A stretch of DNA of 64,000 nucleotides. It comes from a virus. Lineage: Duplodnaviria > Caudoviricetes. A program made the position numbers and the translations under genes. This document shows positions 3,221 through 41,616 of the stretch, piece by piece. The notes beneath the pieces were generated by a model. It had not been told where the DNA came from. It worked only from the letters and a program-made list of their open reading frames with translations, and made no database searches. Location: IMG/VR virus record IMGVR_UViG_2862465376_000001, positions 32,001 through 96,000 of that record, one strand, 5' to 3'. Every line of letters starts with the position of its first letter. The first letter of the stretch is position 1.

Positions 3221-3256
3221 CTGTTCACCGCACCCCCTCCCTGCCCCAAGAGGCGA
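3221..3256 (+). promoter_or_regulatory. Candidate late promoter motif
   Basis: CTGTTC-N21-AAGAGGCGA. Confidence 0.5.
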
Positions 3257-3295
3257 GGGCGCACCACGCGCCGCCGCCCGACAGGAGGACCCGGT

Positions 3296-5470
3296 GTGCT
3301 GAAGTTCGCCACGGCCCAGATCATCGCCGCGTCGCTCGGCGACCAGCAGCAGCGCTTCTCCAAGGCGGCCCACCGCGCGGTCTTCCAGTACGAGGCGCGC
3401 CCCGGCTACCTGTACGTGCGCAGCAGGGCCATCAGCTCACGCACGAACGACAACCACGACGAGTTCCCCTCCGCCGAGATCGAGGCCGCGTACAAGACCT
3501 TCGTCGGCAAGCCGGTCTTCGTGAACCACGTCAACGACAACCACCGGCGCGCGCGCGGAGTCATCATCGACGCCGCCCTCCACCAGGACAAGAACCCCGA
3601 CGGCACCCCGGACACCTGGGCCGAAGTCCTCATGGAGATCGACGCCGTCCGCTTCCCGAAGCTGGCCAAGGCCATCCTCGCAGGCGAAGTCGACCGGACC
3701 TCCATGGGCTGCGACGTCGAGCGCTCCGTATGCTCCGCCTGCGGCAACGAGGCCCGCACCCCCGCCGAGTACTGCGCCCACATCCCCACCCTCAAGGGCA
3801 AGCGCATCTACCGGCGCACCGCGTCCGGCAAGAAGATCGGCGAGCTGGTCCGCGAGACCTGCTACGGCCTGTCCTTCTTCGAGAACAGCGTCCTCGTCGA
3901 ACCCCCGGCGGACCCGACGGCTCATTTTCTTGGCGTGGACGCCACCGGCATCGGCAAGGCCGCCTCCCAGCAGAAGGTGACCGTCGACCTCACCCCCAGC
4001 GCGCGCGACCTCCTGAACGTGGCCGCCGCGAAGACCGCCGAGTTCAACCCTGCCGACTTCGACTCCGACGACCCCGAAGCGGACGACGACGAGGACGGCA
4101 AGGACGGCGCCGCGCCCAAGCTCGCCGAGCCCGCCCGGCACCAGGCCCCGGCCGCACCCGCCGTACCCAAGGACGGCGCCCCCGCCGACCGCCAGCGCCG
4201 CCAGGACGCCGTCACCAAGACCAAGCCCTACACGCCGCTCAAGCCCAGCCTCAACAGCCTCCAGACCACGGCCAACGGCGACCTGCCCGTCGGCAGCCCC
4301 TTCTGCCGCACCTGCAACCAGGACCTGGAGCTGGTCCGCAACGGCCACAACGCGGCCTGGCAGCACGCGGGCGGTACCGCCACCGGTCACGAGCCGGTCC
4401 CGCACGACGGCCGCACCTTCAACCAGGAGGCGCACCGGCAGGACGAGGCGGCCATGTGGACGCGGCAGTACCCGATGTCCAGCACCGCGCAGCCGCCGCA
4501 CACGGCCAGCCTCATCGACTCCGTGCTCATCAACGCCGACGGCACGATCAGCGCCGTCGCCTACGGCGAGATCAAGGCACCCGCCGACGTTGACACTCTC
4601 CGCGAGCCGAACTGCCCCGTCTGCGGCGACATGGACACCTTCGACGGGCTCGCCTGCCAGGTCTGCGGCTTCATCTCCCCGCCCGAGCAGTTCCGCGACC
4701 CCGACCTCGACAAGGCCAAGACCAACGACCTGCGCAAGCAGATCGTCGACCCCACCCTGATCGACGACAACGGCGAACTCCAGCGCGTCGACCAGGACGG
4801 CACGGCCATGCCGCAGGACGGCCAGCCCGGCGACCCGGCACAGGACCCGAACGCGCCGCAGGACCCGTCCCAGCAGATGGTCGATCCCGACCAGCTCGAC
4901 GACAACGGGCTCCCCCCGTCCCCGTACGGCGACCAGGCCCTCGACGGCACCCAGACCGACGGCCCGGCCGTGTCCGACCGCAACGGCGACGGCATGATCC
5001 AGCCCAACGAGATCGACCCCGAGGGCAACGTCCCCGTCCAGCAGCAGGACATGGCCGACCCCGAACAGGGCGGCCAGGTCGGCCCGCGCGAACTGCCCGG
5101 CTGGGGCAAGGACCGTACCGGCGACCCGTTCACCCCCGGCCCCGACATGCCCTACCGGCCCGACCAGCCCGACGGCCCGGAAGAAAAGCTCGACCAGGAC
5201 GACGCCGACTCTCCCTACGGCATGGCCCCCGCCCCGATGCAGGGCCAGCCCGGCGACGGCCTCCCCGACCTGTTCTGCCCGTCCTGCGGCTACGGCGCCG
5301 ACGCCACACCGCCCCAGACCCAGGACATGGGCAACCCGGACGGCGCCACCGACGGCATCGTCTCCGGCGACGTCTGCCCCAGCTGCCAGCGCGCCCAGCT
5401 CCTCACCCCGGGCGAGATCAACTCCAACTACTCCAAGGCACCTGCTGTCGAAAAGCCCGCCTGGAGCTGA
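3296..5470 (+). CDS. Capsid maturation protease-like head protein with Zn-ribbons and an acidic Pro/Gln-rich region
   Basis: GTG start after AGGAGG; TFVGKPVFVNH, TSMGCDV..SVCSACGN, FFENSVLVEPPADPTA; several CxxC pairs; upstream of scaffold and capsid. Confidence 0.65.
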   Translation: MLKFATAQIIAASLGDQQQRFSKAAHRAVFQYEARPGYLYVRSRAISSRTNDNHDEFPSAEIEAAYKTFVGKPVFVNHVNDNHRRARGVIIDAALHQDKNPDGTPDTWAEVLMEIDAVRFPKLAKAILAGEVDRTSMGCDVERSVCSACGNEARTPAEYCAHIPTLKGKRIYRRTASGKKIGELVRETCYGLSFFENSVLVEPPADPTAHFLGVDATGIGKAASQQKVTVDLTPSARDLLNVAAAKTAEFNPADFDSDDPEADDDEDGKDGAAPKLAEPARHQAPAAPAVPKDGAPADRQRRQDAVTKTKPYTPLKPSLNSLQTTANGDLPVGSPFCRTCNQDLELVRNGHNAAWQHAGGTATGHEPVPHDGRTFNQEAHRQDEAAMWTRQYPMSSTAQPPHTASLIDSVLINADGTISAVAYGEIKAPADVDTLREPNCPVCGDMDTFDGLACQVCGFISPPEQFRDPDLDKAKTNDLRKQIVDPTLIDDNGELQRVDQDGTAMPQDGQPGDPAQDPNAPQDPSQQMVDPDQLDDNGLPPSPYGDQALDGTQTDGPAVSDRNGDGMIQPNEIDPEGNVPVQQQDMADPEQGGQVGPRELPGWGKDRTGDPFTPGPDMPYRPDQPDGPEEKLDQDDADSPYGMAPAPMQGQPGDGLPDLFCPSCGYGADATPPQTQDMGNPDGATDGIVSGDVCPSCQRAQLLTPGEINSNYSKAPAVEKPAWS

Positions 5471-5533
5471 CAAGAGACGAACACCGCCCACGGCAACCGT
5501 CGTGAGCGCCGAGGCTTTGAAGGAGTGCCCAGT

Positions 5534-6430
5534 ATGAGCCGACCGCTCATGACCGCCATGGCCGCGCAGCAGGCCGTCATCAACGACCAGCGCGAACAGC
5601 TGGCAAAGCAGGCCACCCAGCTGAAGGTGCAGGGCGAGCAGATCGCCCTGATCGCCCGCCTGGCCGGTGTCACCGACGAAGTCGCCGCCCTCGCCAAGAC
5701 CGCCGACATCGCCAACCCGGCCCAGCCCATCCCGGACCCCGCCCCGCAGGCCCCGTCCGAGACCACCGAGCAGGCCGCCACCCCCGAGACCAACGACGAC
5801 CCCCGCTCCCCGGGCCAGACTGGCAACTCCACCGCCGGAGTCCCGGCGGCCGCCACCGACACCGCCCTCACCCCGGGCGCCACCATCCCCACCCCGCCCT
5901 ACAACAACCTCGCCGACGTCACCGCGCCGGTCTCCGGCCACCTCGACGAGGCCCACACCCCGCCGGAGTCCCTCCGCATCGAGACCGACGTCCGCGTCGG
6001 CGACCCGATGCAGCCCGAGGTCGCCTTCCCCTGGACCATCAGCGACAACCAGTCCAACTCGGCCCCGCCGAAGGACGGCGAGATGTCCCAGACCGGCGGC
6101 GGCTCCGCTCCCAGCCCCAGCCGCACCCACGCCTGCCTGCGCCTGGCCCGCCTCCAGGTCCAGGCCGGACTGGCCAAGGGCGACGACCTCACCGTCGCCG
6201 CCAGCCTGGAGGCCGACACCAAGCTCAGCGACGCCATGATCAACTACGAGATCGGCGTCCTGGAGCGCGTCAAGACCGCCTCCCGCACCACCGCACCCAC
6301 CGGCAACGCCCGCGTCGCCTCGCGCGGCACCGAGCGCGTCGCCCCGTCCCTGGCCTCCCAGGTCACCGCCTCCGCCGCCTCCACGGCACCGGCGGGCAGC
6401 GAGCAGGAACTGACCGACCTGTTCGACTGA
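5534..6430 (+). CDS. Putative scaffolding protein
   Basis: N-terminal coiled coil, low-complexity Pro/Thr/Ala-rich body; lies between the protease and capsid genes. Confidence 0.5.
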   Translation: MSRPLMTAMAAQQAVINDQREQLAKQATQLKVQGEQIALIARLAGVTDEVAALAKTADIANPAQPIPDPAPQAPSETTEQAATPETNDDPRSPGQTGNSTAGVPAAATDTALTPGATIPTPPYNNLADVTAPVSGHLDEAHTPPESLRIETDVRVGDPMQPEVAFPWTISDNQSNSAPPKDGEMSQTGGGSAPSPSRTHACLRLARLQVQAGLAKGDDLTVAASLEADTKLSDAMINYEIGVLERVKTASRTTAPTGNARVASRGTERVAPSLASQVTASAASTAPAGSEQELTDLFD

Positions 6431-6442: not shown

Positions 6443-6479
6443 GACGAAGGGCCCGGACCTCCCCGCCGGGCCCTTCGTC
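6443..6479 (+). terminator. Stem-loop terminator
   Basis: GACGAAGGGCCCGG ... CCGGGCCCTTCGTC. Confidence 0.75.
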
Positions 6480-6512: not shown

Positions 6513-6548
6513 CTGTCCCACTACCAGTTGCCCGCTCCTAGGGGGTGA
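6513..6548 (+). promoter_or_regulatory. Candidate late promoter motif
   Basis: CTGTCC-N21-AGGGGGTGA, directly after a terminator. Confidence 0.6.
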
Positions 6549-6602: not shown

Positions 6603-7115
6603 ATGATCCGCGTGCGGGCCAACCTGGCGCACATCAAGAGGACCCTCCGTCCTCTCTACGCATGGACTCAGGCGACGCCCAAGTCCGTGTTCCTCGACCC
6701 GTCCTGGAACCGCAGCGTCCCGATCTACCCGGGCATGGTCCTCGCCCGTACCAGCGGCGAGCTGGTCACCCTCATCGGCCCCAACCAGGTCCCCTACGGC
6801 TTCGCGGCCGACTACGTCGGCGGCGACGGCTTCGACCCGCTCCTCGACGTCGGCGTCAACGCCACCGCCGTCTGGGTCCCCGGCGCCGACGCCGAGTTCG
6901 AGGTCCTCGCCCCCGCCTTCGACGACACCCAGGCCTGGGTCGACCCGGGCGACGGCACCGAGAAGCTCGTCTACGCAATCACCGCCGGAACCGGCCGGGG
7001 CAAGCTCGCCCTCGCCACCAACGGCTCCGTCGCCACCGCCATCTCCACCCAGGCTGTCGGCCGCCTGCTCAAGGTCAACAGCGCTTCCAAGATCACCGTC
7101 GGCGGCCTGCGCTAA
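6603..7115 (+). CDS. Capsid decoration / minor capsid protein
   Basis: 170 aa, beta-rich, immediately upstream of the major capsid gene; strong coding bias. Confidence 0.6.
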   Translation: MIRVRANLAHIKRTLRPLYAWTQATPKSVFLDPSWNRSVPIYPGMVLARTSGELVTLIGPNQVPYGFAADYVGGDGFDPLLDVGVNATAVWVPGADAEFEVLAPAFDDTQAWVDPGDGTEKLVYAITAGTGRGKLALATNGSVATAISTQAVGRLLKVNSASKITVGGLR

Positions 7116-7154: not shown

Positions 7155-8144
7155 ATGACCGCAACGCTCACCACCGGGCACAAGGGCGGCGTCACCGCGA
7201 AGAAGTCGGACGACTACGTCTCCGAGATCCTCGCCCGCCGCGAGGCCCGTGGCGGCCAGCCGCTGACCTTCGAAGCCAAGCAGCAGCGCCTCCAGGCCGT
7301 CGCCTCCGACCAGGTCAACGGCATCAAGCGCCTCGGCGTCGGCATGATCGGCCCGATCCAGCTGAAGCTGCGCTACCAGGGCATCACCCGCAACGTCCTC
7401 GTCGAGGACCCCTGCACCCCCGGCACGCCGGTCGAGTACGACGTCTGGGACGACCTCGGACAGGCGTACATCATGTCCGGGACCGACGGCGAGGTCCGCA
7501 TCACCCCCTTCGAGGGCAAGCGGATCCAGGTGCGGTTCTTCCGCATCGCCTCCCGCCCGGCCATCCGCAAGGAAGACTTGCTCTACCTGCGGATCAACGC
7601 GGTCGAGCAGGCCCAGGACGAGACCAAGCAGGCCATCCTCAAGCAGGAGGACTCCCGCCTCGTCACCATCCTGCAGGCCGCGATCTCCGACTACGCGGGC
7701 CGCGCCGACCACACGGTCACCCCGAACCACGTGATCACGGAAGCGAGCGGCTACCTCACCCCGGGCTCGCTCTACAGCGCGGTCTCCATGACCGACATGC
7801 ACGAGCTGCAGTCCAGCCGGATCCTCATCAACCCGATGGACTACCGGGACATGTACAGGTGGGACATCAACCAAACCGGTTGGGCGTTCAAGGACCGCGT
7901 CGTCGCCGGTGAGACCATCACCAGCTTCGGCGAGTTCCAGCTGCAGCGCTCCATCGTCATCCCGCAGGGCCAGACCTTCCTGACGCCGGACCCGCAGTTC
8001 CTCGGCGTCTTCCCCGTCCTGTACAGCCTCGACGTGGAAGAGAACCACCGCGTCGAGAGCTTCTGGAAGGGCTGGGTCTTCGACGAGATGATCAGCATGC
8101 TGATCCTCAACCCGCGTGGGCTCGCACGGATCGACAAGTCGTAG
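7155..8144 (+). CDS. Major capsid protein (HK97 fold, Bxz1-like)
   Basis: MIGPIQLKLRYQGITRNVL, RITPFEGKRI, YRWDINQTGWAFKD, FLGVFPVLYSLDVEE and LNPRG match my recollection of cluster C mycobacteriophage capsids. Confidence 0.9.
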   Translation: MTATLTTGHKGGVTAKKSDDYVSEILARREARGGQPLTFEAKQQRLQAVASDQVNGIKRLGVGMIGPIQLKLRYQGITRNVLVEDPCTPGTPVEYDVWDDLGQAYIMSGTDGEVRITPFEGKRIQVRFFRIASRPAIRKEDLLYLRINAVEQAQDETKQAILKQEDSRLVTILQAAISDYAGRADHTVTPNHVITEASGYLTPGSLYSAVSMTDMHELQSSRILINPMDYRDMYRWDINQTGWAFKDRVVAGETITSFGEFQLQRSIVIPQGQTFLTPDPQFLGVFPVLYSLDVEENHRVESFWKGWVFDEMISMLILNPRGLARIDKS

Positions 8145-8461: not shown

Positions 8462-8496
8462 CTGTCCCCTGTCCCCACCCCGCCTGTAGGGGGTGA
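8462..8496 (+). promoter_or_regulatory. Candidate late promoter motif
   Basis: CTGTCC-N20-AGGGGGTGA. Confidence 0.55.
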
Positions 8497-8499
8497 GGG

Positions 8500-8578
8500 T
8501 TTGTGGTGGGCCCTCGTGCGGCTCCGTTCTCCGGCCGCCAGCTCGACCCCCGGGTTCCCCTTCCCGGGGGTCGAGTGC
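8500..8578 (+). ncRNA. Candidate small RNA with two hairpins carrying CU-rich loops
   Basis: Bounded by a promoter motif and a 13-bp hairpin (8542-8575); no convincing ORF. Confidence 0.3.
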
Positions 8579-8612
8579 TGTCTGGGGTGCGCCTGGCCTC
8601 CTCAAGGGGTGA
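8578..8612 (+). promoter_or_regulatory. Candidate late promoter motif
   Basis: CTGTCT-N20-AAGGGGTGA. Confidence 0.6.
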
Positions 8613-8645
8613 CGGAAGCTCCGTCCCCCTTTCTGAGGAGGCATC

Positions 8646-9029
8646 ATGCCGGTCCAGCAGCTCCAGGTTTCCAACCCGTCGAGCGGTGTCGTGGTCGTCA
8701 CTCCGGACGCCGACCGTCCGAAGTCGTACCTGCGCTTCGAGGCGAAGGGCGACGCGACGGGCGAGGACGTCAAGATCATCTCCCGCGAGACCGCGTTCCA
8801 GGCTCCGCTGGTCAAGGCGGTCAAGCGCGGCGTGCTGGTGATCGACGACGACATCTCGGGCGACGAGGAGCTGCAGCGCGTTCTGGGGACCGTGCAGAAG
8901 CGGCAGCCGGTCGGCGAGAAGCCGCTGACGGCGGTGCGGGTGGACTACGTGTACGACGAGGAGTCGAACTCCTACAACAAGGTGGACCGCGACGTGCGCG
9001 TGGTCATCGACCCGCTGCAGAAGGGCTGA
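8646..9029 (+). CDS. Hypothetical virion-module protein
   Basis: GAGGAGG RBS; high GC3. Confidence 0.75.
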   Translation: MPVQQLQVSNPSSGVVVVTPDADRPKSYLRFEAKGDATGEDVKIISRETAFQAPLVKAVKRGVLVIDDDISGDEELQRVLGTVQKRQPVGEKPLTAVRVDYVYDEESNSYNKVDRDVRVVIDPLQKG

Positions 9030-10337: not shown

Positions 10338-10350
10338 GTTCAGCTGGTCC

Positions 10351-10386
10351 AGCAGCCCCGTCCCGCGACTTCGGGACGGGGCTGCT
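10351..10386 (+). terminator. Stem-loop terminator
   Basis: AGCAGCCCCGTCCCG ... CGGGACGGGGCTGCT. Confidence 0.75.
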
Positions 10387-10388: not shown

Positions 10389-10423
10389 CTGTTCGTGCCC
10401 GGTCATCGGCCGCCAAGGGGCGA
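10389..10423 (+). promoter_or_regulatory. Candidate late promoter motif
   Basis: CTGTTC-N20-AAGGGGCGA. Confidence 0.55.
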
Positions 10424-10447
10424 AGGCGACCGAGGAGAGGGCATCCG

Positions 10448-11107
10448 ATGAGCGGTACGACACCACGGCTGGGGCTGAAGACTTTCGACCAGTCCGACCC
10501 CTTCCTGCGTGGCGACTTCAACGACAACAACGCGCGTCTGGACGCCTATCCGGGGCACTTCATCTGCACGTCGCAGTCGCGGCCCGCGTGGGGTCCGGCG
10601 CAGTCCGGGATGCGGATCTACGAGACGGACACGCGGCGGGAGCTGGAGTGGCGGGGGACGCAGTGGCGTGAGGTGCTGAGTGCGCCGCCGGTGTTCCCGG
10701 GGTACGCGCGGCCGAACATCACGCTGGGCCTGGACTCCCACGTCTACTACAAGCTGGGCACGTTCAACCTGAACCGGCCGGGGTCGCTGATGGTGAACCT
10801 GGCGGTCGAGGTCGCCGTCCAGTCGCTGTACACGATGAACCTCTACTTCCGCACGCAGATCGACGGCGCGGACGCGCTGCTGGGTGACGGCGGCTCCTAC
10901 ATCCGCGTGGAGCAGGTGCACACGTCGGGGTCCGGCTGGCAGAGGACGTACATGGTGCCGGTGATGGGCATGCGCTCGGTCAGCGCGGGCTCCCACAACT
11001 TCGGCATCCACATGTGGACCCAGCTGGGGTCGACGACGAAGACGGGGTCCGCGCGACTGGTGACGGCGCGCGGCACGGCGCTGCTCGTGAACTCGACGGA
11101 CACCTGA
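10448..11107 (+). CDS. Fibre/whisker-like virion protein
   Basis: N-terminal TTPRLGL..F...D.FLR.DFNDN..RLD and GMRIYETDT motifs resemble phage fibre N-termini. Confidence 0.55.
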   Translation: MSGTTPRLGLKTFDQSDPFLRGDFNDNNARLDAYPGHFICTSQSRPAWGPAQSGMRIYETDTRRELEWRGTQWREVLSAPPVFPGYARPNITLGLDSHVYYKLGTFNLNRPGSLMVNLAVEVAVQSLYTMNLYFRTQIDGADALLGDGGSYIRVEQVHTSGSGWQRTYMVPVMGMRSVSAGSHNFGIHMWTQLGSTTKTGSARLVTARGTALLVNSTDT

Positions 11108-32339: not shown

Positions 32340-32374
32340 GTGTTTCGGGCCGGATCGGCGCCAGAAAGGGGTGA
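32340..32374 (+). promoter_or_regulatory. Candidate late promoter motif
   Basis: GTGTTT-N20-AAGGGGTGA. Confidence 0.55.
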
Positions 32375-32385
32375 GGAGGTGGCCC

Positions 32386-32814
32386 ATGAAGACGCTGGCG
32401 CTCGTTGGCGGAGACCTGGCCCTCGGTGAGGGCGGCTACCGGACGGTCACGGGTGCGCCCCGGATCCGGCAGGACCTGGGCCTGGCGCTTGCCGAGCCGT
32501 TCGGGCACGACCCGTACCACCCGGAGTTCGGCTCGGTGCTGGCCTCGCACATCGGTGAGCCGCTGACGGCCGAGCTGGAGCTGCTCGTGCGGTCGGAGAT
32601 CGTGCGGGTCATCCAGCAGTACGTGGACGCGCAGCAGGCGCAGATCGCGGCCGACGCGCTGTCCCGGTCACGGTCCCGGTTCAGCTACCAGGACGTGGTC
32701 AAGGAGGTCACGTCGATCAACACGGAGCTGCAGTACGACACGCTCAAGGTGACGATCGCGCTCAAGACCCAGTCCGGTGCGACGGTCAAGGTGCTTCGGA
32801 CGGTCACGACGTAG
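32386..32814 (+). CDS. Baseplate wedge protein (gp25/gpW-like)
   Basis: GHDPYHPEFGSVL motif; upstream of baseplate J. Confidence 0.8.
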   Translation: MKTLALVGGDLALGEGGYRTVTGAPRIRQDLGLALAEPFGHDPYHPEFGSVLASHIGEPLTAELELLVRSEIVRVIQQYVDAQQAQIAADALSRSRSRFSYQDVVKEVTSINTELQYDTLKVTIALKTQSGATVKVLRTVTT

Positions 32815-33205
32815 CCATGTCTCGCGCGAACCGCTCCAGCTCCTGCTCGGTGATCGGTTCGGGCCGGGGGCGGGCGATCACGTTCAGGGAGCCTGCCTGT
32901 TCCCCGCCGAGGATGTAGCCGTAGGCGACGAGGGCTGTGTCACGGGTCTCGTAGTGGCCGGGCAGGTACCCGTACCAGTCGCACGCCATGGTGAAGCTGT
33001 CGATCATGTCGCGGACACGGAGCTGGCCAAGGCGCGAAGAGGAAGCCGGGGAGTCCTCGTCGTCGCGCAGGTCTGGGCGCAGGAGGTCCTCCAGGTCGGC
33101 GACAGTGAGGGCCTCGCCGACGTAGGCGTCCAACGTGGCGCCTCCGCCTCCGAGACGGATACCGTGAGCGACCTTCTCGGCGTCGAAGTCTGCGTAGTCG
33201 GGCAT
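32804..33205 (-). CDS. Hypothetical accessory protein
   Basis: AAGGAG RBS; good codon bias. Confidence 0.65.
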   Translation of the reverse strand: MPDYADFDAEKVAHGIRLGGGGATLDAYVGEALTVADLEDLLRPDLRDDEDSPASSSRLGQLRVRDMIDSFTMACDWYGYLPGHYETRDTALVAYGYILGGEQAGSLNVIARPRPEPITEQELERFARDMATS

Positions 33206-33352: not shown

Positions 33353-33387
33353 CTGTGAGGAGCCTCCCGCTCGTCCTCAAGGGGTGA
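33353..33387 (+). promoter_or_regulatory. Candidate late promoter motif
   Basis: CTGTGA-N20-AAGGGGTGA. Confidence 0.6.
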
Positions 33388-33407
33388 CGAGAGGGAGGGC
33401 GCCGCGC

Positions 33408-35258
33408 ATGGGTGTTTCACGGGAGGACATCGTCACGCAGATGCGTGACGCGCTGCTGGTCTCCGACCCGGAGCTGGACACGTCCATCGGCACTCCGGCC
33501 CGGAAGATCCTGGACGCGGTCGCGGCCAGCCTGGCGGACGCCTACGTCGAGAACCACCTGCTGTCGTACGCCTACGACATCGACAGCAAGGTGGACCAGG
33601 ACTTGGACTCGTTCTGCCAGCTGTTCGGCATCGCCCGGATCCCGGCCCGGCGCGCGGTCGGCACGGTCACGTTCTCCCGGACCGGCGACCTGACCGCCAC
33701 GGTGTTCATCCCCGTGGGCACGGAGATCTCGTCGGCGGCGGACTCGGCGATCGTGGTCACCACGGTCACCGGCGGCACGCTCATGCCTGGGGTCACGTCG
33801 GTCACGGTGCCGGTCCAGGCGGTCACGGCCGGGCCGGAGGGCAACCTGGGGGCGGGGACGGCGACCCTGATCACGTCGCCGATCCAGGGGGTCAACTCGG
33901 TGGTCAACACGGCCGCCTTCACCGGGGGCACCTCGCGGGAGACCGACTCGGAGCTGCGGACCCGCTGGAAGTCCACGGTCTTCCGGTCGCTGGCCGGGAC
34001 CGAGCAGATGTACCGGGGCGTGGCCCTGGATGACACGGACTGCTACGCGGTGTCCGTGGTCGGCTCCTCCCGGACGCGGTCGGAGATCCTCCAGGTCCCG
34101 GTCAGCGGGGACGTGGTCTGCGAGATCGAGGACGCCCGGTACGTCTACTCGTCGCCGGTGCAGGTGACGAAGGCCGACGGCATCCCGCTGCTGAAGGACT
34201 ACGACTACGAGTGGATCCCGGCGAACCCGCCGCAGATCCGTGGGCTGTCGTCCACGTTCCCGGCGGCCGGTGAGCTGCTGACCGTGGACTACCAGTACCT
34301 GCCGGTGGTGAGCCGGAACGATCCGGACCAGAACATCACCAACCGGATCGACCTCTTCACCGGCGGCATCCGCGCGCAGGGGGCGCAGGCCAGCCTGGTC
34401 TTCCAGACCGAGAAGAAGTTCCAGACGGTGTCGACGCTGGACCTGTTCACCGGGGACTGGCTGCGCGCGGACCAGACGCGGCCGACGGCGGCCAACATCT
34501 TCGTGCCGCTGCCGTTCGGACCGATCCTGACGGTGCCGTCCACGCTGGTGGTCGGGGCGACGACGTACGGGCTGGCCACGAAGGCGAACCCGCTCGGGAC
34601 GATCGCGAACGGGGTGACGTACGCCTACCAGGTCGTGCACGAGGACACGGTGGAGGGCTGGACGCCGACGAGCCGGTTCGGTCTGGAGTGGCACCGTACC
34701 TACCTGCCCGCCGACGGCACGCCGCTGGCGGTGGGCAACGCGGGCGACTACACGTACAACGAGGTGCCCGCCTCGGTCCAGGACGCGGTCAACCGGTGGC
34801 GGCTGGTCGGGATCGACGCGAAGGTCCACCAGGCGAAGCAGCGGTGGCTCAGGTTCTCGCTCGGCGTGATGTACGCGGCGTCCTCCACGGGGGCGGTTGA
34901 CTCGGTCCAGGACTCGATCAGGACGGCCTTGAGTGACTACCTGAACCGGATGGACTTCAACTCCAGCATCCAGATCTCCGACGTCCTCGCGGTCATCCAC
35001 CAGGTGCCCGGGGTGGACAACGTCCGGCTGCTCCACGGCGGCGACGTGACCGGGTACAACCCGGCCAACCCGAACGCCTCGGTCGTCGGGATCCAGGAGA
35101 TCGTGCCGAACTCCTCCCCGGACTCGGCCGCGCTCAAGTCTCACGTCGAGGCGTCGACCGGCCGGGCCAAGGACGTCTACTTCCGCGACGACGAGCTGCC
35201 GGTCCTGGGCGGTATCGCCTTCAAGACCCTGGCCCGCAACAGCTTCGGAGTCCTGTGA
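33408..35258 (+). CDS. Baseplate J-like protein
   Basis: RAVGTVTFSR, VQAVTAGPEGN and FTGGTSRETDSELRTR motifs. Confidence 0.9.
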   Translation: MGVSREDIVTQMRDALLVSDPELDTSIGTPARKILDAVAASLADAYVENHLLSYAYDIDSKVDQDLDSFCQLFGIARIPARRAVGTVTFSRTGDLTATVFIPVGTEISSAADSAIVVTTVTGGTLMPGVTSVTVPVQAVTAGPEGNLGAGTATLITSPIQGVNSVVNTAAFTGGTSRETDSELRTRWKSTVFRSLAGTEQMYRGVALDDTDCYAVSVVGSSRTRSEILQVPVSGDVVCEIEDARYVYSSPVQVTKADGIPLLKDYDYEWIPANPPQIRGLSSTFPAAGELLTVDYQYLPVVSRNDPDQNITNRIDLFTGGIRAQGAQASLVFQTEKKFQTVSTLDLFTGDWLRADQTRPTAANIFVPLPFGPILTVPSTLVVGATTYGLATKANPLGTIANGVTYAYQVVHEDTVEGWTPTSRFGLEWHRTYLPADGTPLAVGNAGDYTYNEVPASVQDAVNRWRLVGIDAKVHQAKQRWLRFSLGVMYAASSTGAVDSVQDSIRTALSDYLNRMDFNSSIQISDVLAVIHQVPGVDNVRLLHGGDVTGYNPANPNASVVGIQEIVPNSSPDSAALKSHVEASTGRAKDVYFRDDELPVLGGIAFKTLARNSFGVL

Positions 35259-36610: not shown

Positions 36611-39600
36611 ATGGCCGACCTGTATCCGGACTACGCCGCGCTGGCCGCCGCGCGGCAGATCGGCGTGGACTACCGGCTGCTGGTGCGTACTCCTCCGGGC
36701 TCCCGGCTGGCTCACATCGCAATCCACGGCGGCGGCATCGAGCCGGGCACGCTGGAGATCGCCGACTACCTGGCCGGGTCGGCCAGCCGCTTCTACGCGT
36801 TCGACGGCATGCTGACGTCGGGCAACTCCGACCTGTACATCACCTCGACCAACTACGACGAGCCGCAGGTCCTGGACCTCGTCGCGGCCAGCGACTACGT
36901 CATTTCCTGGCACGGAACGGCCGGGGACGAACAGGTGACGTACGTCGGGGGCCTGGACACCGAGATCGCGTCCCGGCTGCAGGACGAGCTGGCGCGGGCC
37001 GGGTTCGCGGTCGAGGCGGGCGACACGGAGCTGAACAGCTCGGACCCTGCGAACGTCGTGAACAAGGGCTCGCGCGCCAAGGGCGTGCAGCTGGAGCTGA
37101 CGGCCGCGCTGCGTGAGGCGTTCTTCGAGGACTTCAGCCGAGACGGCCGGGACAGCGGTCCCCGGACCGCCCTGTTCTACGCCTACGTCACGGCGGTCCA
37201 GACCGCGCTCAACGGACTGGACGTGCCGGTCAAGGCAGTGGGCACGTCGGCGCGCACCTCGGCTCGGCCGGTCAGTGCGACGGGCTCGGTCTCGGGCGAC
37301 TACGGAATCCCGGCGCTGGCGCCCTTGACCGTGGACGGCATGCCCCTTGACTCGCTCAAGGACGCGGTCAGGCTCGCCAGCAAGCGGCAGGTCAGCGCGG
37401 ACAATGAGCGGTTCTGGTCCAGCGCGCCCCGGCCCAACGGGGATCCGGTGCGGGAGGTCTTCGAGTTCGCTCTGGCCTCGGACCGGCCGGTCAACAGGGT
37501 GGCGTTCTCTCTGGCACGGTTCCCGCAGCGGGCCTGGGTGCAGTACCGGGACCGGGACGGCCTGTGGCACCCCCTGCTCCAGAAGGGCGGCGGTCCGGTC
37601 CAGATCAGCATCATGGACTCGGTCCCGGCGGTCATCCCGACCGGTGTGGCCGACGAGGTGAAGCTGCACCCGCAGCACTTCGGGGCCGGGCACTGGATGC
37701 CCCAGCTGGTCGACGTGGAGCCGGTGACCGCGAGCCGGTTCCGGATCGTCATGACCCGGCTGCCGTCGTCGTCGGCGCCGCGCGCCCTGGACGGGCAGAC
37801 GGTGCCCTACTCGCTCGGGGTCAAGGATGCTCTGGTGTCCTACCGGGCCGCGTCCCTGGCCGACCTGCCGTGGCTTCCCCAGGTCGACGCCGAGAACACG
37901 GTGCCGATCGCCGGGTCGACCGACATCCTCGGCTCGCAGGTCGACTACGTCCTGCGCCGGAACCGGGCGGCGAACCTGGTGCCGCCCGCGACCGGTATCT
38001 GGCGGTGTGCTCCGCAGCCGGTACCGAACGCCGTGGTGAGCCTGTACCTGGATCTGAGGACGTCCGAGGGCGCCGGTCAGGTCGTGGACCGGCTGTACGT
38101 TGACCCGGTCACCTCCGGGCCGTCGGTGAACCTGTACTACACGGACGAGACGGTGGTGCCGGACCGGTTCGTCCCGAGCGACACCCCGCTGACCCTGCCC
38201 CTGGTCCGGGCCGCGTCCGAGATGCCGACGGCGGACTCCGAGGGGCTGCTGTTCGAGACGTCCCGCTCGTACCTGGACATCGACAACCGGGCCTGCCAGT
38301 TCGATCCGGGTGAGCCGTTCCTGCTGGCCATGACGGTCCAGCCGCAGTTCACCTCGGACGAGACCGGTCAATGGACCATCCTGGACACGCCTGCACTCAC
38401 GGTCATGATCAGCGATGGCGTGCTGACCGTACGCCTGGGCGAGCGGACGGTGGAGCTGGACCGGGCCCTCTTCGGCTTCAATGCCCGCATCCCGCTTGCC
38501 GTCGCCTACGACGGCTCGACGCTGACCGTGCGCACCCCGTGGGACACGCGGATCCAGGAGCACACCCACGTCCAGGGCATGGCGCCGCCGAACATCATCC
38601 GCCTCGGCGGGCCGCTGCAGGGCGAAGGCGGTGCCATGCGGCTGGTCAACCTCTTCCTCGCGCGCGGCCGGGCCGCCGATGTCACCACGATCGAGGAGTA
38701 CTGGGATAGCCCGGCCGCCTACGCGCTGCCGCCGGGACACAACGTGGACCCCACCACGCACACCAGCGCCAGCGCGCTGCTGCGGATGGATCCGGTGCTC
38801 ATCACCCCGGGCGCCGACTCGGTGTGTCCGTGGGGGCTGATCGGTGGCCCTCCGGTCGCCACCGACGAGCTGGTGTGGACGCCGGTCCCGGGCGACTACA
38901 CCTTGCGCAAGGGGTTGCTGAAGTTCCGGCCGGTCAAGGCCCGGCACCTGAAGATGGAGTTCACCAACCTGCAGCCGATGGTGCTCACCCCGTCGCAGGC
39001 CTCGCCGCTGGTGGAGACGCAGCTGTTTCCTCCCGACAGCGGGCAGCCGTCCGGGGTGATGGCCACGGGCACGTCGGTGTCGGGTGCGGCCCCGGCCGGG
39101 GCGCGGGTGGCGACCGAGCAGGGGGCGGTCTACCAGTACATCGACGCGAACCGCATCGTCGGCGGCGCCGCCAGCGATGTGCCGTACAAGTCGACTGAGG
39201 CGCTGTACGCGCCGGACCCGCTCGCCGCCCAGCAGCTGCGGCGCTCGGGCCAGCGGTTCCCGTACATGCCGCTGCCGGGCACCCGCTCACCCCGGTTCAC
39301 CAGCACCGGCCGTCACCGGTACCAGACGATGCAGCTGGCCATGGATACGAAGGTCGGCTACACCGTGGCGATCAGCCAGGTGCTGGCCTACCTCGCCGAC
39401 CCGGTCGCCCAGCGGGACACCGAGCAGTACGTGGAGCTTTTCCACGACACCACGTACCTGACTGGGTACACCGACAGCGAGCAGGGCGGCTGGAAGCACA
39501 CCGGGTCCGCGATGGTCACGACTGGCCAGCCGCCGTGGACGGGCACCCGGATGACGTCGAAGGCGTTCATCTCCAAGCGCCGGGTGCTGGCGGTGCAGTT

Positions 39601-40789
39601 CGCGGCGCAGACCTCGGAGGCCCAGCAGCTGGTCGCCGACCCGGACTTCGACGACCCGAGCCTGCGGTACTGGCGGCCGGTCGGGGACGCCACCATCAAG
39701 TCCTCGGACCGGTACGCGTCCACCATCGGCCGGATGGCCGAGGTCGCGCGCGGGCACTCCGTGTCGTCCTGGGGAGCCCTGGAGTCCCGGTTCCCGACCT
39801 GGGGCGACTTCGAGGAGTCCAACCCCCTGCCCAACCGGCCTCTGTGGTGGGAGGTGGAGAACTCCACCAGCGAGGCGGACCTGGGCGGAATCGAGTCGCT
39901 GCAGCCCGTCCAGCCCGCGCCGGGCGGACGCCTGTACGGGGCAGCCCGCGTCTACACCACGGGGCCGCTGCAGCAGCCTCTCCTCCTGCAGCTGGTCAAC
40001 GGGGACGGCCGGGTCCTCGCGCAGGCATCCCAGACCATCAACGCCGCCCAGATCGCGGAGTGGTACGTCGGCGTGACCGTCCGCACCAGCGCTCCGTCCG
40101 GCTCGGTCACCTGGGACACGGTCTCCGCCAGCGGCACCCGCACCTGGGGCGGGGTGGAGGCCCTCGGCATGTGGGGCGACGTCACCCAGGACTGGGACGT
40201 CGACAACATCCATGACGTCCGGGTCCGGGTCATCCAGCAGGGAGAGGCGGGAACGGACGCCTGGCACACCGACAGCCTGGCCGTGTTCAACGACCCCATC
40301 ATCTGGGAGATCTCCCGCGACGGAGGCATCACCTGGTACGAGATGCTGAACATCCGCAACAACCCGCGCGGCGTGTTCCAGTTCCCCGAACTGCCCGCCG
40401 TCGACCGCTCCGGCGGCACCCAGCTCCGGTGGCGGGCCACCGGCTACGCCCCCGATCTGTCGGTGTCGTCGGTCGTCCTGCGCCCCTGGTACGCCACGCT
40501 GTCCGGCGCCGTCCCCTACCTCGACACGCTGCAGGCGGCGGGCTCGCCGTCGTCGCTCGCCGACTACTACCCGCCGGTGGAGGCCGACCCGCTGTTCCAG
40601 GGCTGGCAGCACCCCATCCCGCAGGACTGGTGGCTGGCCTCGCGCCAGTGGCTGCGGCAGACCGCCCCGAAGACCGACCCGCTGCCCGCAATCACCCTGC
40701 CCGAGGCCGTCGCCGAGGGAACAGACGAGGGCAACCCGCCGTCCCCGGCGAAGCGCTCCCTCACCGACGCGTTCGTCCTCAACCGCTAA
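36611..40789 (+). CDS. Large baseplate/tail protein with an N-terminal poly-gamma-glutamate hydrolase (PghP-like) domain
   Basis: IAIHGGGIEPGT, ITSTNYDEP, ISWHG and GVQLEL in the first ~205 aa; the rest is beta-rich and Trp-rich. Confidence 0.8.
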   Translation: MADLYPDYAALAAARQIGVDYRLLVRTPPGSRLAHIAIHGGGIEPGTLEIADYLAGSASRFYAFDGMLTSGNSDLYITSTNYDEPQVLDLVAASDYVISWHGTAGDEQVTYVGGLDTEIASRLQDELARAGFAVEAGDTELNSSDPANVVNKGSRAKGVQLELTAALREAFFEDFSRDGRDSGPRTALFYAYVTAVQTALNGLDVPVKAVGTSARTSARPVSATGSVSGDYGIPALAPLTVDGMPLDSLKDAVRLASKRQVSADNERFWSSAPRPNGDPVREVFEFALASDRPVNRVAFSLARFPQRAWVQYRDRDGLWHPLLQKGGGPVQISIMDSVPAVIPTGVADEVKLHPQHFGAGHWMPQLVDVEPVTASRFRIVMTRLPSSSAPRALDGQTVPYSLGVKDALVSYRAASLADLPWLPQVDAENTVPIAGSTDILGSQVDYVLRRNRAANLVPPATGIWRCAPQPVPNAVVSLYLDLRTSEGAGQVVDRLYVDPVTSGPSVNLYYTDETVVPDRFVPSDTPLTLPLVRAASEMPTADSEGLLFETSRSYLDIDNRACQFDPGEPFLLAMTVQPQFTSDETGQWTILDTPALTVMISDGVLTVRLGERTVELDRALFGFNARIPLAVAYDGSTLTVRTPWDTRIQEHTHVQGMAPPNIIRLGGPLQGEGGAMRLVNLFLARGRAADVTTIEEYWDSPAAYALPPGHNVDPTTHTSASALLRMDPVLITPGADSVCPWGLIGGPPVATDELVWTPVPGDYTLRKGLLKFRPVKARHLKMEFTNLQPMVLTPSQASPLVETQLFPPDSGQPSGVMATGTSVSGAAPAGARVATEQGAVYQYIDANRIVGGAASDVPYKSTEALYAPDPLAAQQLRRSGQRFPYMPLPGTRSPRFTSTGRHRYQTMQLAMDTKVGYTVAISQVLAYLADPVAQRDTEQYVELFHDTTYLTGYTDSEQGGWKHTGSAMVTTGQPPWTGTRMTSKAFISKRRVLAVQFAAQTSEAQQLVADPDFDDPSLRYWRPVGDATIKSSDRYASTIGRMAEVARGHSVSSWGALESRFPTWGDFEESNPLPNRPLWWEVENSTSEADLGGIESLQPVQPAPGGRLYGAARVYTTGPLQQPLLLQLVNGDGRVLAQASQTINAAQIAEWYVGVTVRTSAPSGSVTWDTVSASGTRTWGGVEALGMWGDVTQDWDVDNIHDVRVRVIQQGEAGTDAWHTDSLAVFNDPIIWEISRDGGITWYEMLNIRNNPRGVFQFPELPAVDRSGGTQLRWRATGYAPDLSVSSVVLRPWYATLSGAVPYLDTLQAAGSPSSLADYYPPVEADPLFQGWQHPIPQDWWLASRQWLRQTAPKTDPLPAITLPEAVAEGTDEGNPPSPAKRSLTDAFVLNR

Positions 40790-40798
40790 GGAGCCCCC

Positions 40799-41572
40799 GT
40801 GCGCGCCCACTTCAACCGTGCCCTCCTGGACAGGGAGGGCAACCAGGTCGACACGGCCACGATCCGGCTCCGCGTCGCCGGGAGCACCGACCTGCTCACC
40901 GACACCGTCTACACCAACGCCACCGGCGGCGCCACGTACACCAACCCGTGGGAGGCCGTCGGCGGCGAGGTCGACTTCTACCTCGACTCGCCGACCCGGC
41001 TGCAGATCGGTATCACGGTCGGCGCCGACCCCGAGCAGCTCTGGGACGACGTCGATGTCCTCGCGGTCGGCGCGGACTCCTCCCACCCGGGCACCGGAGC
41101 GGACTCCACCCAGGTCGGCGCGGACTCCCTGTCGTCCGGCCAGGGATCGACGTCCCTGGGCACCGGCGCGCAGGCCACTGCCGACCTCTCCACGGCTCTC
41201 GGATACCAGACGGCGACCAGCGAGGCCGGAAGCATCGCCGTAGGCTCCCAGGCGGCCGCCTCGCAGGCCGGGGCCATTGCGGTGGGCCAGTCGGCTCTGT
41301 CGTCCGGCGCCCAGGCCACCACGCTCGGCGATGCCGCCCAGGCCGTCTACGACCACTCCACGGCTATCGGCGCGGGCGCTGCGACCGACCGGCCCAACCA
41401 GGTCCGGCTCGGCACGGAGCAGGACCAGGTCGACATCCCCGGTACGGTCACCCTGCGCAGCCCAGGCGGAATCCCGTTCCTCCTCGGTGTCACCGACACG
41501 GGCATGCTGTTCACGCAGAAGCTGCCCCCGTACGTTCCGCCGACACCGCCCGACGAGGGCGGCGGAGAGTAG
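40799..41572 (+). CDS. Tail fibre-like protein with YadA-head-like repeats
   Basis: About 14-aa periodic STALG / SIAVG / AIAVG / STAIG repeats. Confidence 0.7.
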   Translation: MRAHFNRALLDREGNQVDTATIRLRVAGSTDLLTDTVYTNATGGATYTNPWEAVGGEVDFYLDSPTRLQIGITVGADPEQLWDDVDVLAVGADSSHPGTGADSTQVGADSLSSGQGSTSLGTGAQATADLSTALGYQTATSEAGSIAVGSQAAASQAGAIAVGQSALSSGAQATTLGDAAQAVYDHSTAIGAGAATDRPNQVRLGTEQDQVDIPGTVTLRSPGGIPFLLGVTDTGMLFTQKLPPYVPPTPPDEGGGE

Positions 41573-41580
41573 ACCGGTTG

Positions 41581-41616
41581 CTGTGTGCCTCCCCCTGTTC
41601 GCCCTCCAAGGAGTGA
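41581..41616 (+). promoter_or_regulatory. Candidate late promoter motif
   Basis: CTGTGT-N21-AAGGAGTGA. Confidence 0.5.

Follow-up and report, generated by a model that had tools for sequence, protein, structure and literature searches.

Two-box motif in the virion block

The window analysed here, a stretch of 64,000 nucleotides of phage DNA, covers the virion block and some of the replication block in the genome of a ~155 kb Streptomyces myovirus that has no cultured close relative. The phage is probably temperate, because an XRE regulator (1776–2291) and a ParA-like gene lie in the window and an integrase is present in the relatives. Fifteen copies of a signal made of two short boxes, (G)CTGTC(C) and C(C/T)CA(A/G)GGGG(T/C)GA, were located on the + strand. 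The boxes lie 26 bp apart from start to start (a 20-nt gap), and the right box lies 11–63 nt upstream of the start codon. Conservation is limited to these boxes, and the remainder of every copy is unique.

The first copy (2532–2566, CTGTCC-N20-AAGGGGCGA; leave-one-out score 19.5 bits, rank 1) lies within an ORF at 2484–2894 or, alternatively, ahead of an internal GTG start (2592) served by an AGGAG Shine-Dalgarno (SD) sequence; its arms pair with −19.5 kcal/mol. A weak copy with one additional nucleotide of spacing (3221–3256, AAGAGGCGA; leave-one-out 9.4 bits) precedes the gene starting at 3296, which encodes 724 aa with a head-protease domain. The copy at 6513–6548, a weak one of the TAGGGGGTGA subtype, follows a terminator-like hairpin (6443–6479), precedes the cement-protein gene at 6603 and the major head protein gene at 7155, and has no sequestering hairpin. 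The copy at 8462–8496 has no ORF behind it and heads a conserved non-coding segment (8497–8577, +), a candidate late non-coding RNA of ~80 nt that is near-invariant in seven relatives and ends in a 13-bp hairpin (8542–8575, with one compensatory pair) followed by UGCUGUCU. Directly behind it, the copy and class-B hairpin at 8578–8650 serve gene 8646 (z −4.2); here the right box and CCUCCUC form a helix with CCCCUU...GAGGAGG, which holds the SD of this gene. The next copy (10389–10453), of the GGGGCGA subtype, lies between a 16-bp hairpin (10350–10386) and gene 10448, and the left box of the copy at 12709–12765, before a NAGPA-domain gene starting at about 12761, shares positions with the stop codon of the preceding gene.

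The best copy (17225–17280) stands before the first + gene after a MazE-like antisense island, and the SD of gene 17275 is buried by the hairpin GCGCCUCCUC/GAGGAGGC. A 22-pair hairpin buries the SD of gene 18922 at the copy at 18871–18922 (z −5.0). The tail sheath gene, the first + gene after an HD-hydrolase antisense gene, is preceded by a copy with a hairpin at 20162–20217 (z −4.8), whose orthologous copies show compensatory changes. Another copy with a hairpin (22151–22212, AGTGGGTGA) precedes gene 22209, and a weak copy (27742–27784, GTGTCT...AAGGGGCGG) precedes the NlpC/P60 gene at 27779. At 32340–32385, a copy with the left box GTGTTT precedes the gp25-like gene at 32386, the first + gene after a ParA-like antisense gene. 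The copy at 33353–33408 follows the antisense gene 32804–33205, and its hairpin buries the SD of the baseplate-J gene, together with the AUG in the orthologs. The last copy (41581–41630, AAGGAGTGA, spacing +1) comes with a hairpin of 20 pairs in which the SD of the fibre gene at 41632 is buried (z −4.0).

The first-pass annotation had listed 14 of these sites as candidate late promoters with fixed spacing, and every one was recovered at its position; the copy at 2532 was absent from that list. The pattern as originally written, read literally, occurs at seven places on the + strand and nowhere on the − strand. These are six of the 14 listed sites and the new copy at 2532, and the remaining eight listed sites deviate by one or two bases or by a 1-nt shift in spacing. 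With one mismatch allowed, (C/G)TGTC-N20/21-A(A/G)GGGG(T/C)GA matched the window 11 times, on the + strand only, with 0.24 expected, and the fixed-gap pattern CTGTY-N21-ARGGGGYGA, also with at most one mismatch, gave 11 matches on the + strand and none on the − strand, compared with 0.24 (maximum 2) in dinucleotide shuffles. AAGGGGTGA by itself occurred seven times on the + strand and never on the − strand (0.28 expected).

In a position weight matrix (PWM) search, the 15 sites scored 21–40 bits, whereas no other + position exceeded 11 bits and no − position exceeded 8 bits. In the leave-one-out version, 12 of the 15 sites still ranked first among all other positions on both strands. Four sites were weak alone (3221, which still ranked first, 6513, 27742 and 41581, each below 10 bits in leave-one-out) and rest on their context and on orthologous copies. 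Neither the PWM nor the fixed-gap pattern found a copy past 41.6 kb, in agreement with the earlier statement that the replication module has none. The spacing is also essentially as first described: across the window and relatives, the CTGT columns were in register in 57 of 63 distinct copies (~90%), and the others were shifted by 1 nt.

The surroundings of the copies were likewise as reported. At all five real antisense islands, a copy precedes the first + gene after the island, and three copies follow long perfect GC-rich hairpins (6443–6479, 8542–8575 and 10350–10386). Such hairpins lie just upstream of copies 6513, 8578 and 10389 and of copy 113464 in G001, a complete relative. In the part of the late block that was surveyed, canonical intrinsic terminators were no more frequent than in shuffled sequence. 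The two boxes are unlike any known −35 or −10 element, and TANNNT does not recur at a fixed offset. The window contains hardly any sigma-A consensus promoters, and no core promoter was visible near the sites. The regions upstream of 22 copies shared no other motif, and no alternative promoter motif was found upstream of the copies, including those in short divergent regions or immediately behind terminator-like hairpins.

Copies in relatives and in a Streptomyces assembly

The PWM trained on the window found 23 copies on the gene strand of G001 and none on the other strand. A looser fixed-gap search with at most two mismatches gave a weaker bias than the PWM (23:3 in G001 and 17:6 in a second relative, G002), with 1–5 matches for the reversed pattern as a control. 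Twenty of the G001 copies lie inside its 53 kb virion block. The ~100 kb of non-structural genes, which are equally + stranded, hold one strong copy, located with the full architecture directly before the distant large-terminase gene. About 20 copies of the two-box signal mark the virion and packaging genes of the phage, and its strand and gene-class specificity is strict. Orthologous copies are retained in phages whose sheath proteins are only ~80% identical.

In a Streptomyces assembly, all five perfect matches and 12 of the 24 matches with at most one mismatch fell on a 152.5 kb phage contig. The other 8 Mb of the assembly was at control level, with no enrichment in the host chromosome, indicating that this is not a host motif.

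RNA hairpins over the start regions

A layer of RNA hairpins was overlooked in the first-pass annotation. The spacer or the right box pairs with the downstream SD or start region, which gives a sense-strand RNA hairpin with covarying arms, and in about two thirds of the copies the DNA between and including the boxes encodes the 5′ arm. The hairpins consist of 20–24 pairs with bulges, use G-U pairs, are intergenic and on the sense strand only, and often hold the SD. Arms paired better with their own partners than with arms swapped among copies (p = 5e-5 in the window; 24 of 30 ortholog groups, p = 2e-4). The sense fold was more stable than the antisense fold in 46 of 63 copies (p = 2e-6) versus 143 of 300 control windows, and compensatory changes were found among orthologous copies. 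From the covarying hairpins it follows that at least some RNAs contain the transcribed boxes and that selection acts on these at the RNA level.

The box spacing is constant, but the folds vary among the copies. Copies of class A fold the right box into an apical stem-loop, which showed no true covariation; in class B, the right box pairs with a downstream CCCCUU. No significant fold was present at copies 6513, 8462 and 32340, and an Rfam search of the window returned no known RNA family. The right box also pairs with the 16S 3′ tail at −11.3 kcal/mol, within the top 1.5% of random 14-mers and equal to real SDs, which could point to a ribosome-related RNA function instead. Given this complementarity and the RNA-level selection, the element is more than a simple two-box promoter.

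Occlusion of the start regions was evident in computed folds. In read-through RNA, the unpaired fraction of the start region was 0.29 behind the motif and 0.43 in 27 control genes (p = 7e-4), and it rose to 0.52 when the RNA began at p+9, just after GTGA. All 14 copies gained accessibility, by more than the controls did (p = 0.0014), and six further copies in G001 followed the same pattern (0.19 to 0.55). A strong upstream hairpin tended to go with weak sequestration, as a trend only (rho −0.40, p = 0.08); a 4-versus-16 split for the same link gave p = 0.006, with the split chosen after seeing the data.

Proposed promoter function and alternative readings

The evidence tilts, by a modest degree, towards a novel class of late promoter built into hairpins that sequester ribosome-binding sites, as at the T4 genes e and soc. 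The earlier proposal of a late promoter is partly supported, by several independent lines: the gene-class specificity, the antisense and terminator context, the non-coding copy, the lack of another shared upstream motif, the constancy of the box spacing across different RNA folds and the lack of host enrichment. Promoter activity, however, is deduced from these features and the RNA layer had been missed. We infer from the sequence a late promoter of a class not described before. Host RNA polymerase, redirected by at least one phage factor, would read the boxes on double-stranded DNA and start transcription a few bases past GTGA. The 3′ arm of the hairpin is the SD or start-codon region of the downstream late gene; read-through transcripts from upstream would contain both arms and be locked for translation, and promoter-initiated transcripts would lack the 5′ arm and have an open start region. 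A start at p+9 would, however, leave very short leaders at 27742 (only 2 nt before GTG) and 32340 (about 10 nt), which counts against this reading. Other points against it are the boxes' lack of likeness to −35 and −10 elements, the RNA-level selection on them, the 16S complementarity of the right box, and the missing region 2 sigma factor and T7-type RNA polymerase in two complete relatives.

At the T4 genes e, soc, 49 and I-TevI, the SD or AUG is buried in a hairpin, and the DNA for the 5′ strand of this hairpin contains a late promoter as well, so that read-through transcripts are silent and promoter-initiated ones are translated (PMC3014915). The occlusion and release computed here match this design, and the same logic would apply at most late operons, in contrast to a few genes in T4. 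In T4, gp55/gp33 read one −10-type box (TATAAATA) as the late promoter, and the starts are mapped; here, two GC-rich boxes stand 26 bp apart, the starts are predicted from sequence, and the readers are candidates.

Bipartite promoters read by recognisable phage sigma-family proteins are found in SPO1 (gp28, gp33/34) and in phages of the phiEco32 type. Like these, the present element has two boxes, is specific to a temporal class, differs from the host consensus and is repeated before many genes, middle or late in those phages; with a 20-nt gap (26 bp start to start), its boxes are more widely separated than by the usual 17–18 nt spacer, and no sigma factor with a Sigma70 region 2 was found in two complete relatives. 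A T7-type phage RNA polymerase was also not found in these two genomes. The only candidate reading factors are a WhiB-like (Wbl) protein of 189 aa with a Cys-rich C-terminal extension, encoded in the replication module (58869–59438, +) and conceivably a trans-factor, and a 128-aa sigma-region-4-type HTH protein encoded ~12 kb beyond the window, in relatives.

A purely RNA-level element in late mRNA leaders and intercistronic regions, with the late promoters unrecognised, has a limited chance of being the correct explanation. A phage RNA-binding protein might use the left box, hairpin and right box as its operator, for instance a translational activator that opens the RBS hairpin in the manner of Mu Com at mom; alternatively, 30S subunits might dock there, at a ribosome standby or STAB-SD-like site, so that structured late mRNAs are stabilised or primed. 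The arm covariation, sense-strand folding preference and G-U pairs argue for it, as do the SD or start codon in the 3′ arm of most copies, the match of the right box to the anti-SD and the missing sigma factor and phage RNA polymerase. In the group of copy 8578, a conserved downstream CCCUUGA is the pairing partner of the right box, which places the box in a selected RNA. Against this, boxes and spacing stay constant, yet the right box lies in an apical stem-loop without true covariation at some copies and supplies the 5′ strand of a long helix at others, two presentations that are incompatible, and three copies lack a significant fold. T never occurs at p+9 and p+10, where a perfect SD would continue with U, and the upstream regions offer no alternative promoter motif. 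Copy 8462, which heads the near-invariant segment, lacks any RBS or ORF that it could regulate, so a purely translational role is a poor fit for it. A search for a Com-type zinc-ribbon protein found none.

A DNA-binding site of a phage regulator, either an immunity-repressor roadblock resembling stoperators or an activator site beside weak, unrecognised promoters, is unlikely. The asymmetry and shared orientation of the sites, the probably temperate nature of the phage, the template-strand sequence of the left box and the region-4-type HTH protein of the relatives speak for it. Cluster A stoperators are single 13-bp boxes in both genome arms that are bound by the immunity repressor and have no associated RNA hairpin. 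The present sites resemble them in being numerous, asymmetric, oriented with transcription and located in short intergenic regions of a temperate actinophage; they are 35-bp two-box sites confined to late genes, in contrast to stoperators in early and late regions (PMC3203893 has a remark on these cluster A mycobacteriophage elements). In Streptomyces, a Wbl protein on sigma-A region 4 and WhiA, whose sigma-4-like HTH reads GACAC, activate promoters with the motif on either strand (PMC10243135). The template-strand left box is GACAG or GACAC, similar to the GACA read by sigma-4-type HTHs and WhiA (PMC10243135), and the phage encodes a Wbl protein, with the region-4-type HTH protein in relatives; those promoters have a normal −35/−10 and variable motif spacing, in contrast to the fixed spacing without a visible −10 here, and the comparison is only a lead. 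Neither a roadblock nor an activator site explains the hairpin covariation and RBS occlusion, and a core promoter is not visible near the sites.

An RNA processing or termination signal, namely a host RNase III cleavage hairpin like the T7 intergenic R sites, at which cutting may expose the RBS, or a U-less terminator or insulator between late units, is a poor candidate. The bulged, sense-strand, intergenic hairpins with an SD often inside would suit it, canonical terminators are not above shuffles in the surveyed late region, and U-less terminators have been reported for actinophage phiC31. For RNase III, however, a conserved single-stranded box at a constant distance of 26 nt would be unnecessary, several copies lack a significant hairpin, and much stronger separate perfect hairpins already stand upstream of some copies. 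The late-gene restriction also disagrees, and copies after antisense islands have no upstream sense transcript to process. T7 RNase III sites and lambda nut are likewise conserved intergenic sense-strand hairpins, and nut has a single-stranded box with a GCCCU...AGGGC-type stem-loop; nut, however, occurs once per operon, T7 sites need no fixed flanking box, and neither is limited to one temporal class. A selfish or neutral REP- or MITE-like repeat would be multi-copy, intergenic and partly palindromic as well, but is highly improbable given the conservation of two short boxes in otherwise unique copies, the retention of orthologous copies and the strict strand and gene-class specificity.

Other actinophages also have a short conserved motif that recurs in a defined orientation ahead of some of their gene starts: the SAS/ESAS elements of cluster K mycobacteriophages, with 11–19 copies, about half of which have an adjacent imperfect inverted repeat (PMC3203893, PMC12699233). 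SAS (GGGATAGGAGCCC) lies 3–8 nt from the start codon, contains the SD and belongs to the non-structural half of the genome, whereas the late-promoter candidate described here is unrelated in sequence, has its right box farther upstream and precedes virion and packaging genes.

Distribution of the bipartite element

The first-pass annotation had described 14 plus-strand copies of a bipartite element, consisting of a left box (C/G)TGTC(C) and a right box A(A/G)GGGG(T/C)GA separated by 20 to 21 nt, as a candidate phage late promoter. All 14 sites were recovered, each copy being named here by its start position. Read literally, the annotated pattern matched at only 7 places, all of them on the plus strand. 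With a fixed gap and at most one mismatch, the window contained 11 matches, all on the plus strand (0.24 expected), and the nonamer AAGGGGTGA occurred 7 times on the plus strand and 0 times on the minus strand (0.28 expected). A position weight matrix (PWM) set 15 sites, the original 14 and one at 2532, apart from all other positions on both strands. The plus-only orientation held for all 15 copies, with none on the minus strand, and since they all lie within 2.5–41.6 kb of the window, the replication module is free of them, as had been claimed. In leave-one-out scoring, 12 of the 15 sites kept rank 1, and the own scores of sites 3221 (rank 1 kept), 6513, 27742, and 41581 fell below 10 bits. 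In the right box, A0 and G7 were invariant across 63 distinct copies collected from the window and from its relatives, with G2–G5 and A8 90–97% conserved, and C-T-G-T of the left box was 83–90% conserved; the two boxes stood in a common register in ~90% of these copies and were shifted by 1 nt in the others.

The window has a G+C content of 68%, and nearly all of its genes are on the plus strand. Pfam and PHROG matches delineated a myovirus virion block at ~3–46 kb, encoding a head-protease-domain protein (3296–5470), a cement protein (6603–7115), the major head protein (7155–8144), the tail sheath (about 20225–21754), NlpC/P60, gp25-like, and baseplate-J proteins, and long fibres, one with a poly-gamma-glutamate hydrolase domain. 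The replication block, from 46 kb, encodes SNF2, DinG-type, and DnaB-like helicases, a 5'-3' exonuclease, a WhiB-like protein, and a primase. A tRNA scan of the window gave no match. The structural block also holds a thyX (flavin-dependent thymidylate synthase) gene at 15668–16411 and a protein (17793–18707) with a C-terminal Arr-ms (rifampin ADP-ribosyltransferase-like) domain (E = 5e-7), which could be a virion-associated ADP-ribosyltransferase. The poly-gamma-glutamate hydrolase domain (E = 1e-54) is N-terminal in a 1392-aa fibre protein (36611–40789), and the adjacent fibre genes contain YadA-head repeats, which together point to a capsule- or polymer-degrading tail.

A megablast search of 50,697 deposited phage genomes found no close relative, and the group has no cultured representative in this collection. 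In a protein-level search, the nearest cultured phages were large actinophage myoviruses (Myrna; Gordonia and Rhodococcus phages), with sheaths ~30% identical. The sheath identity of uncultured IMG/VR relatives was 80–95%, and two of these genomes, 156 and 154 kb long, are complete. Whole-genome comparisons were made on the complete IMG/VR relatives and one Streptomyces assembly contig, NODE_19 of Streptomyces sp. A0642 (L038; 152,548 bp, equal in size to an entire phage genome, its stated coverage being high). The presence of this 152.5 kb relative inside a Streptomyces sp. assembly makes Streptomyces the likely host genus. A tyrosine integrase gene is present in the relatives, and the window carries genes for an XRE-type regulator, a ParA-like ATPase, and a MazE-like antitoxin, suggesting that the phage is probably temperate. 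With the ParA-like gene and the integrase of the relatives, the A0642 contig may represent an episome or an induced prophage.

One of the two complete relatives, G001, was scanned with the PWM built from the window only, giving 23 matches on the gene strand and 0 on the other. Twenty matches fell in a single 53 kb virion-gene block, and the other ~100 kb, transcribed in the same direction, held one strong and two marginal matches. Of the strong copies, 20 of 21 were in the virion block, and the single outlier directly precedes the large terminase gene (terL). Its layout is a stop codon, CTGTCC, an arm GCGCCCUCC, the right box, an arm GGAGGGCGC that is also the Shine-Dalgarno (SD) sequence, and ATG. 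This copy, with the whole architecture, indicates that the element tracks the late gene class and not the genomic neighbourhood. The copies were thus confined to, and co-oriented with, virion and packaging genes, as a late promoter should be. Within the Streptomyces assembly, the phage contig holds each of the five perfect matches and half of those with at most one mismatch, whereas the remaining 8 Mb was at the level of a scrambled-pattern control. The motif does not mark a host regulon.

Presumed restart of late transcription and known promoter types

The virion block is interrupted by five antisense gene islands on the minus strand (1–2291, 16465–17098, 19554–20078, 31474–32268, and 32804–33205); most have family matches, and credible SDs and start codons were present in all of them. 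A copy precedes the first plus-strand gene after each island (2532, 17225, 20162, 32340, and 33353, respectively), and several copies lie behind terminator-like hairpins, in agreement with the context first reported. Copies were therefore found wherever late transcription must restart. At several co-directional junctions, perfect GC-rich hairpins of 13–16 bp (−31 to −34 kcal/mol) lie just upstream of the left box (6443–6479, 8542–8575, and 10350–10386, with one more in G001). In a scan of the plus strand over the surveyed part of the late block, terminator-like sites were at shuffle level only, and a k-mer search of the 100 nt upstream of 22 copies found no second common motif. The moron-like islands encode a DUF6545 protein, an M48-like protein, an XRE regulator, a MazE-like antitoxin with a partner ORF, an HD phosphohydrolase, a ParA-like ATPase, and one unknown protein.

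Neither box is similar to a known −35 or −10 element. The absence of HrdB-type matches was borne out by a TTGACA/16–19 nt/TANNNT consensus scan, which gave 0 sites in 2–22 kb; on the plus strand of the whole window, there were just two loose sigma-70/HrdB matches, neither at a copy. A-N3-T at a fixed offset was absent from the column composition of the copies. In SigB/SigF-type (group 3) promoters, a GTTT-like −35 element is followed 14–17 nt later by a GGGTA(T/C) −10 element. Although GGGTGA occurs in the right box, it lies 24 nt beyond the end of the left box, and there is no GTTT at −20 to −13. For sigma-54 and ECF-type promoters, both the box sequences and the spacing are unfitting. An N4-type hairpin promoter was rejected because there is no giant virion RNA polymerase and a template-strand hairpin would have A-C mismatches.

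The best sigma-A-like promoter in the window (2405–2445; TTGACA at 2410–2415, a 19-nt spacer, TACGAT at 2435–2440) faces the divergent XRE regulator gene and is upstream of an ATG at 2484 with GGGAGGTGA as its SD. An immunity switch or an early switch may lie here. Next to antisense islands, the AT-rich divergent regions 17133–17219 and 20091–20157 have TTAGTAGT and ACTAGT in common, and 20108–20150 is a 10–12 bp inverted repeat (GAACTACTA...TAGTAGTTC). These regions may be operators or promoters of the antisense islands.

RNA hairpins over the start regions of late genes

In the usual fold of the RNA, the right box is at the top of a hairpin (CGCCCU-CAA-GGGGUG) and the inter-box spacer base-pairs with the immediately downstream sequence. 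In most copies, the partner of the spacer is the GGAGG SD, sometimes together with the start codon. Shuffle z-scores were −4 to −5 for four copies, near −2.2 for four, and not significant for some. The pairing of each copy's own arms was compared with that of arms swapped between copies, which controls for a C-rich spacer facing a G-rich SD. Own arms paired better in the window (−15.9 vs −11.6 kcal/mol, permutation p = 5e-5) and in 24 of 30 ortholog groups (p = 2e-4). The copies folded far more stably than random windows (p = 3e-18), and the sense fold was stabler than the antisense fold in 46 of 63 copies (p = 2e-6), compared with 143 of 300 control windows. Compensatory changes were found among orthologous copies: ahead of the sheath gene, for instance, the arms are GUCGGCC/GGCCGAC in the window and GCGUCGGUCAGC/GCUGACCGACGC in one relative. 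The central new finding is this double use of the promoter-like element, which at most late operons also supplies the anti-SD arm of a covarying hairpin.

The apical stem (CGCCCU/GGGGUG) had no true covariation, because both of its halves are nearly invariant. Swaps of its 5' half between copies were neutral (−5.88 vs −5.94 kcal/mol), so the evidence for this stem is its conserved complementary halves. When the 15 copies were aligned without gaps, RNAalifold returned no structure because the outer stems are in differing registers, and per-copy folds and the own-versus-swapped arm tests were used in its place. No Rfam family matched at the gathering threshold on either strand of the 64 kb window.

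The SD-covering arm lies upstream of approximately p+9, the first base after the GTGA of the right box and the presumed late RNA start, in every copy. Accessibility was expressed as the unpaired probability averaged over the translation-initiation region (positions −14 to +2 about the start codon). In the read-through context, it was 0.29 for 14 motif genes and 0.43 for 27 motif-less genes (p = 7e-4). In RNA begun at p+9, motif genes reached 0.52, about the control level of 0.53. Truncation at p+9 gave a gain in 14 of 14 motif genes (p = 1e-4), which was larger than the gain of the controls (p = 0.0014), and six more copies from G001 followed the same pattern (0.19 to 0.55). The computed folds thus paired the SD or start codon with sequence upstream of the presumed late start, as in the T4 type of arrangement. 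The least sequestered copies were those behind very strong upstream hairpins, which is a trend only (rho = −0.40, p = 0.08); a 4-versus-16 split on upstream-hairpin strength gave p = 0.006, with the split picked after the data were seen. The SDs of motif-led genes were much stronger than those of other genes (−11.8 vs −6.1 kcal/mol with the 16S tail).

Readings of the element and candidate factors

The best-supported reading, although unproven, is that the element is a late promoter, for which we put the chances at slightly better than even. Its nearest model is in T4, where the late promoters of genes e, soc, 49, and I-TevI lie within the DNA for the 5' strand of an inhibitory hairpin, so that only transcripts from the late promoter are translated (PMC3014915). 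The computed folds follow the same logic here, but T4 uses it for a few genes, whereas here it would cover most late operons. As a phage-specific bipartite late promoter, the element would be alike in class to those of phages with their own sigma factors. The SAS/ESAS repeats of cluster K (GGGATAGGAGCCC) lie 3–8 nt upstream of start codons in the non-structural half of the genome (PMC3203893), and their function was still unknown in 2025 (PMC3203893, PMC12699233). They have a similar genomic look, being oriented, start-associated actinophage repeats with inverted repeats, but the present element has another sequence, lies 11–63 nt from the start, and has its copies in the structural block. Judged by its sequence or geometry, it is no member of the T4, sigma-phage, or SAS/ESAS systems.

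The strongest rival places the function of the right box in RNA, as a ribosome standby or stabiliser site or as a protein operator. This rival is kept alive by complementarity to the 16S 3' tail, the sequence of which was confirmed in the Streptomyces assembly: the right box pairs with it much as real SDs do (−11.3 vs −11.8 kcal/mol), within the top 1.5% of random 14-mers. However, the box is presented inconsistently in RNA. In groups 8578 and 12709, it pairs instead with a conserved downstream CCCCUU/CCCUUGA, so that the RNA shows the box in differing ways, whereas the spacing in DNA is essentially fixed. There is also no other promoter candidate, and copy 8462 has no ORF behind it, leaving nothing there for a translational operator to act on. 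A repressor site, an RNase III site, or a U-less terminator explains fewer of the facts, and none of the motif hairpins is followed by the T run of an intrinsic terminator.

As regards the late-promoter reading, the initial proposal held for the motif, which was confirmed, extended, and found to be late-class specific; the sigma factor suggested to lie possibly outside the window was not found, as no Sigma70 region 2 was detected in the two complete relatives. Neither a Mu Com match nor a T7-type RNA polymerase was found in these genomes, the family used for the latter search having matched no control genome either. A sigma region-4-type HTH is present in a 128-aa protein of the relatives, whose gene lies ~12 kb past the window end and near packaging genes; this protein had no PDB sequence match, and its PHROG match is unannotated. 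The WhiB-family protein at 58869–59438 is genuine and has a Cys-rich C-terminal extension. Wbl proteins bind sigma-A region 4, and GACA(C) is read by sigma-4-type HTHs, including the WhiA C-terminal domain (PMC10243135). On the template strand, the left box is GACAG or GACAC. This correspondence is a lead and not a result.

We consider improbable a joint scheme in which, with no phage sigma factor or polymerase, the WhiB-like and region-4-like proteins would re-target the host RNA polymerase and a lock would also act in RNA. The 58869–59438 protein would dock on host sigma-A region 4 at a two-box promoter lacking a canonical −10 element, and the same 35 bp would be read again in RNA as an anti-SD arm and SD-like decoy. 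Nearly all late operons would then be translationally locked on transcripts not begun at the late promoter. If this is true, T4 sigma appropriation would have a counterpart in actinobacteria.

If the element is a promoter, it represents a new class for Streptomyces phages, GC-rich, bipartite, and unlike any host consensus, and the switch of large actinophages to late transcription becomes directly testable. The systematic coupling of promoter and RBS hairpin would extend a few-gene T4 mechanism to most late operons of an unrelated phage, and suggests how near-unidirectional genomes with few canonical terminators might prevent late proteins from being made when early transcription reads through. 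An orthogonal promoter-factor pair with a built-in translational lock would also be a useful set of Streptomyces engineering parts.

Copy 8462 heads a segment of ~80 nt (8497–8577) that is nearly invariant in seven phages. It comprises two 5' stem-loops and the 13-bp terminal hairpin at 8542–8575, which has one compensatory A-U/G-C pair and lies directly before the next copy. We regard the segment as a candidate late small RNA, with a first loop, UGUGGUGG, complementary to the (A)CCGCCA loops of hairpins in early-gene leaders. These hairpins, which are small, lie on the sense strand, and combine an (A)CCGCCA(A) loop with varying stems, occur in leaders of early and replication genes (50457, 52652, 54986, 55785, 55809, 61687, 62004, and 63037) and also at 2857, 2896, and 15663, and are a second cis-element family, separate from the motif.
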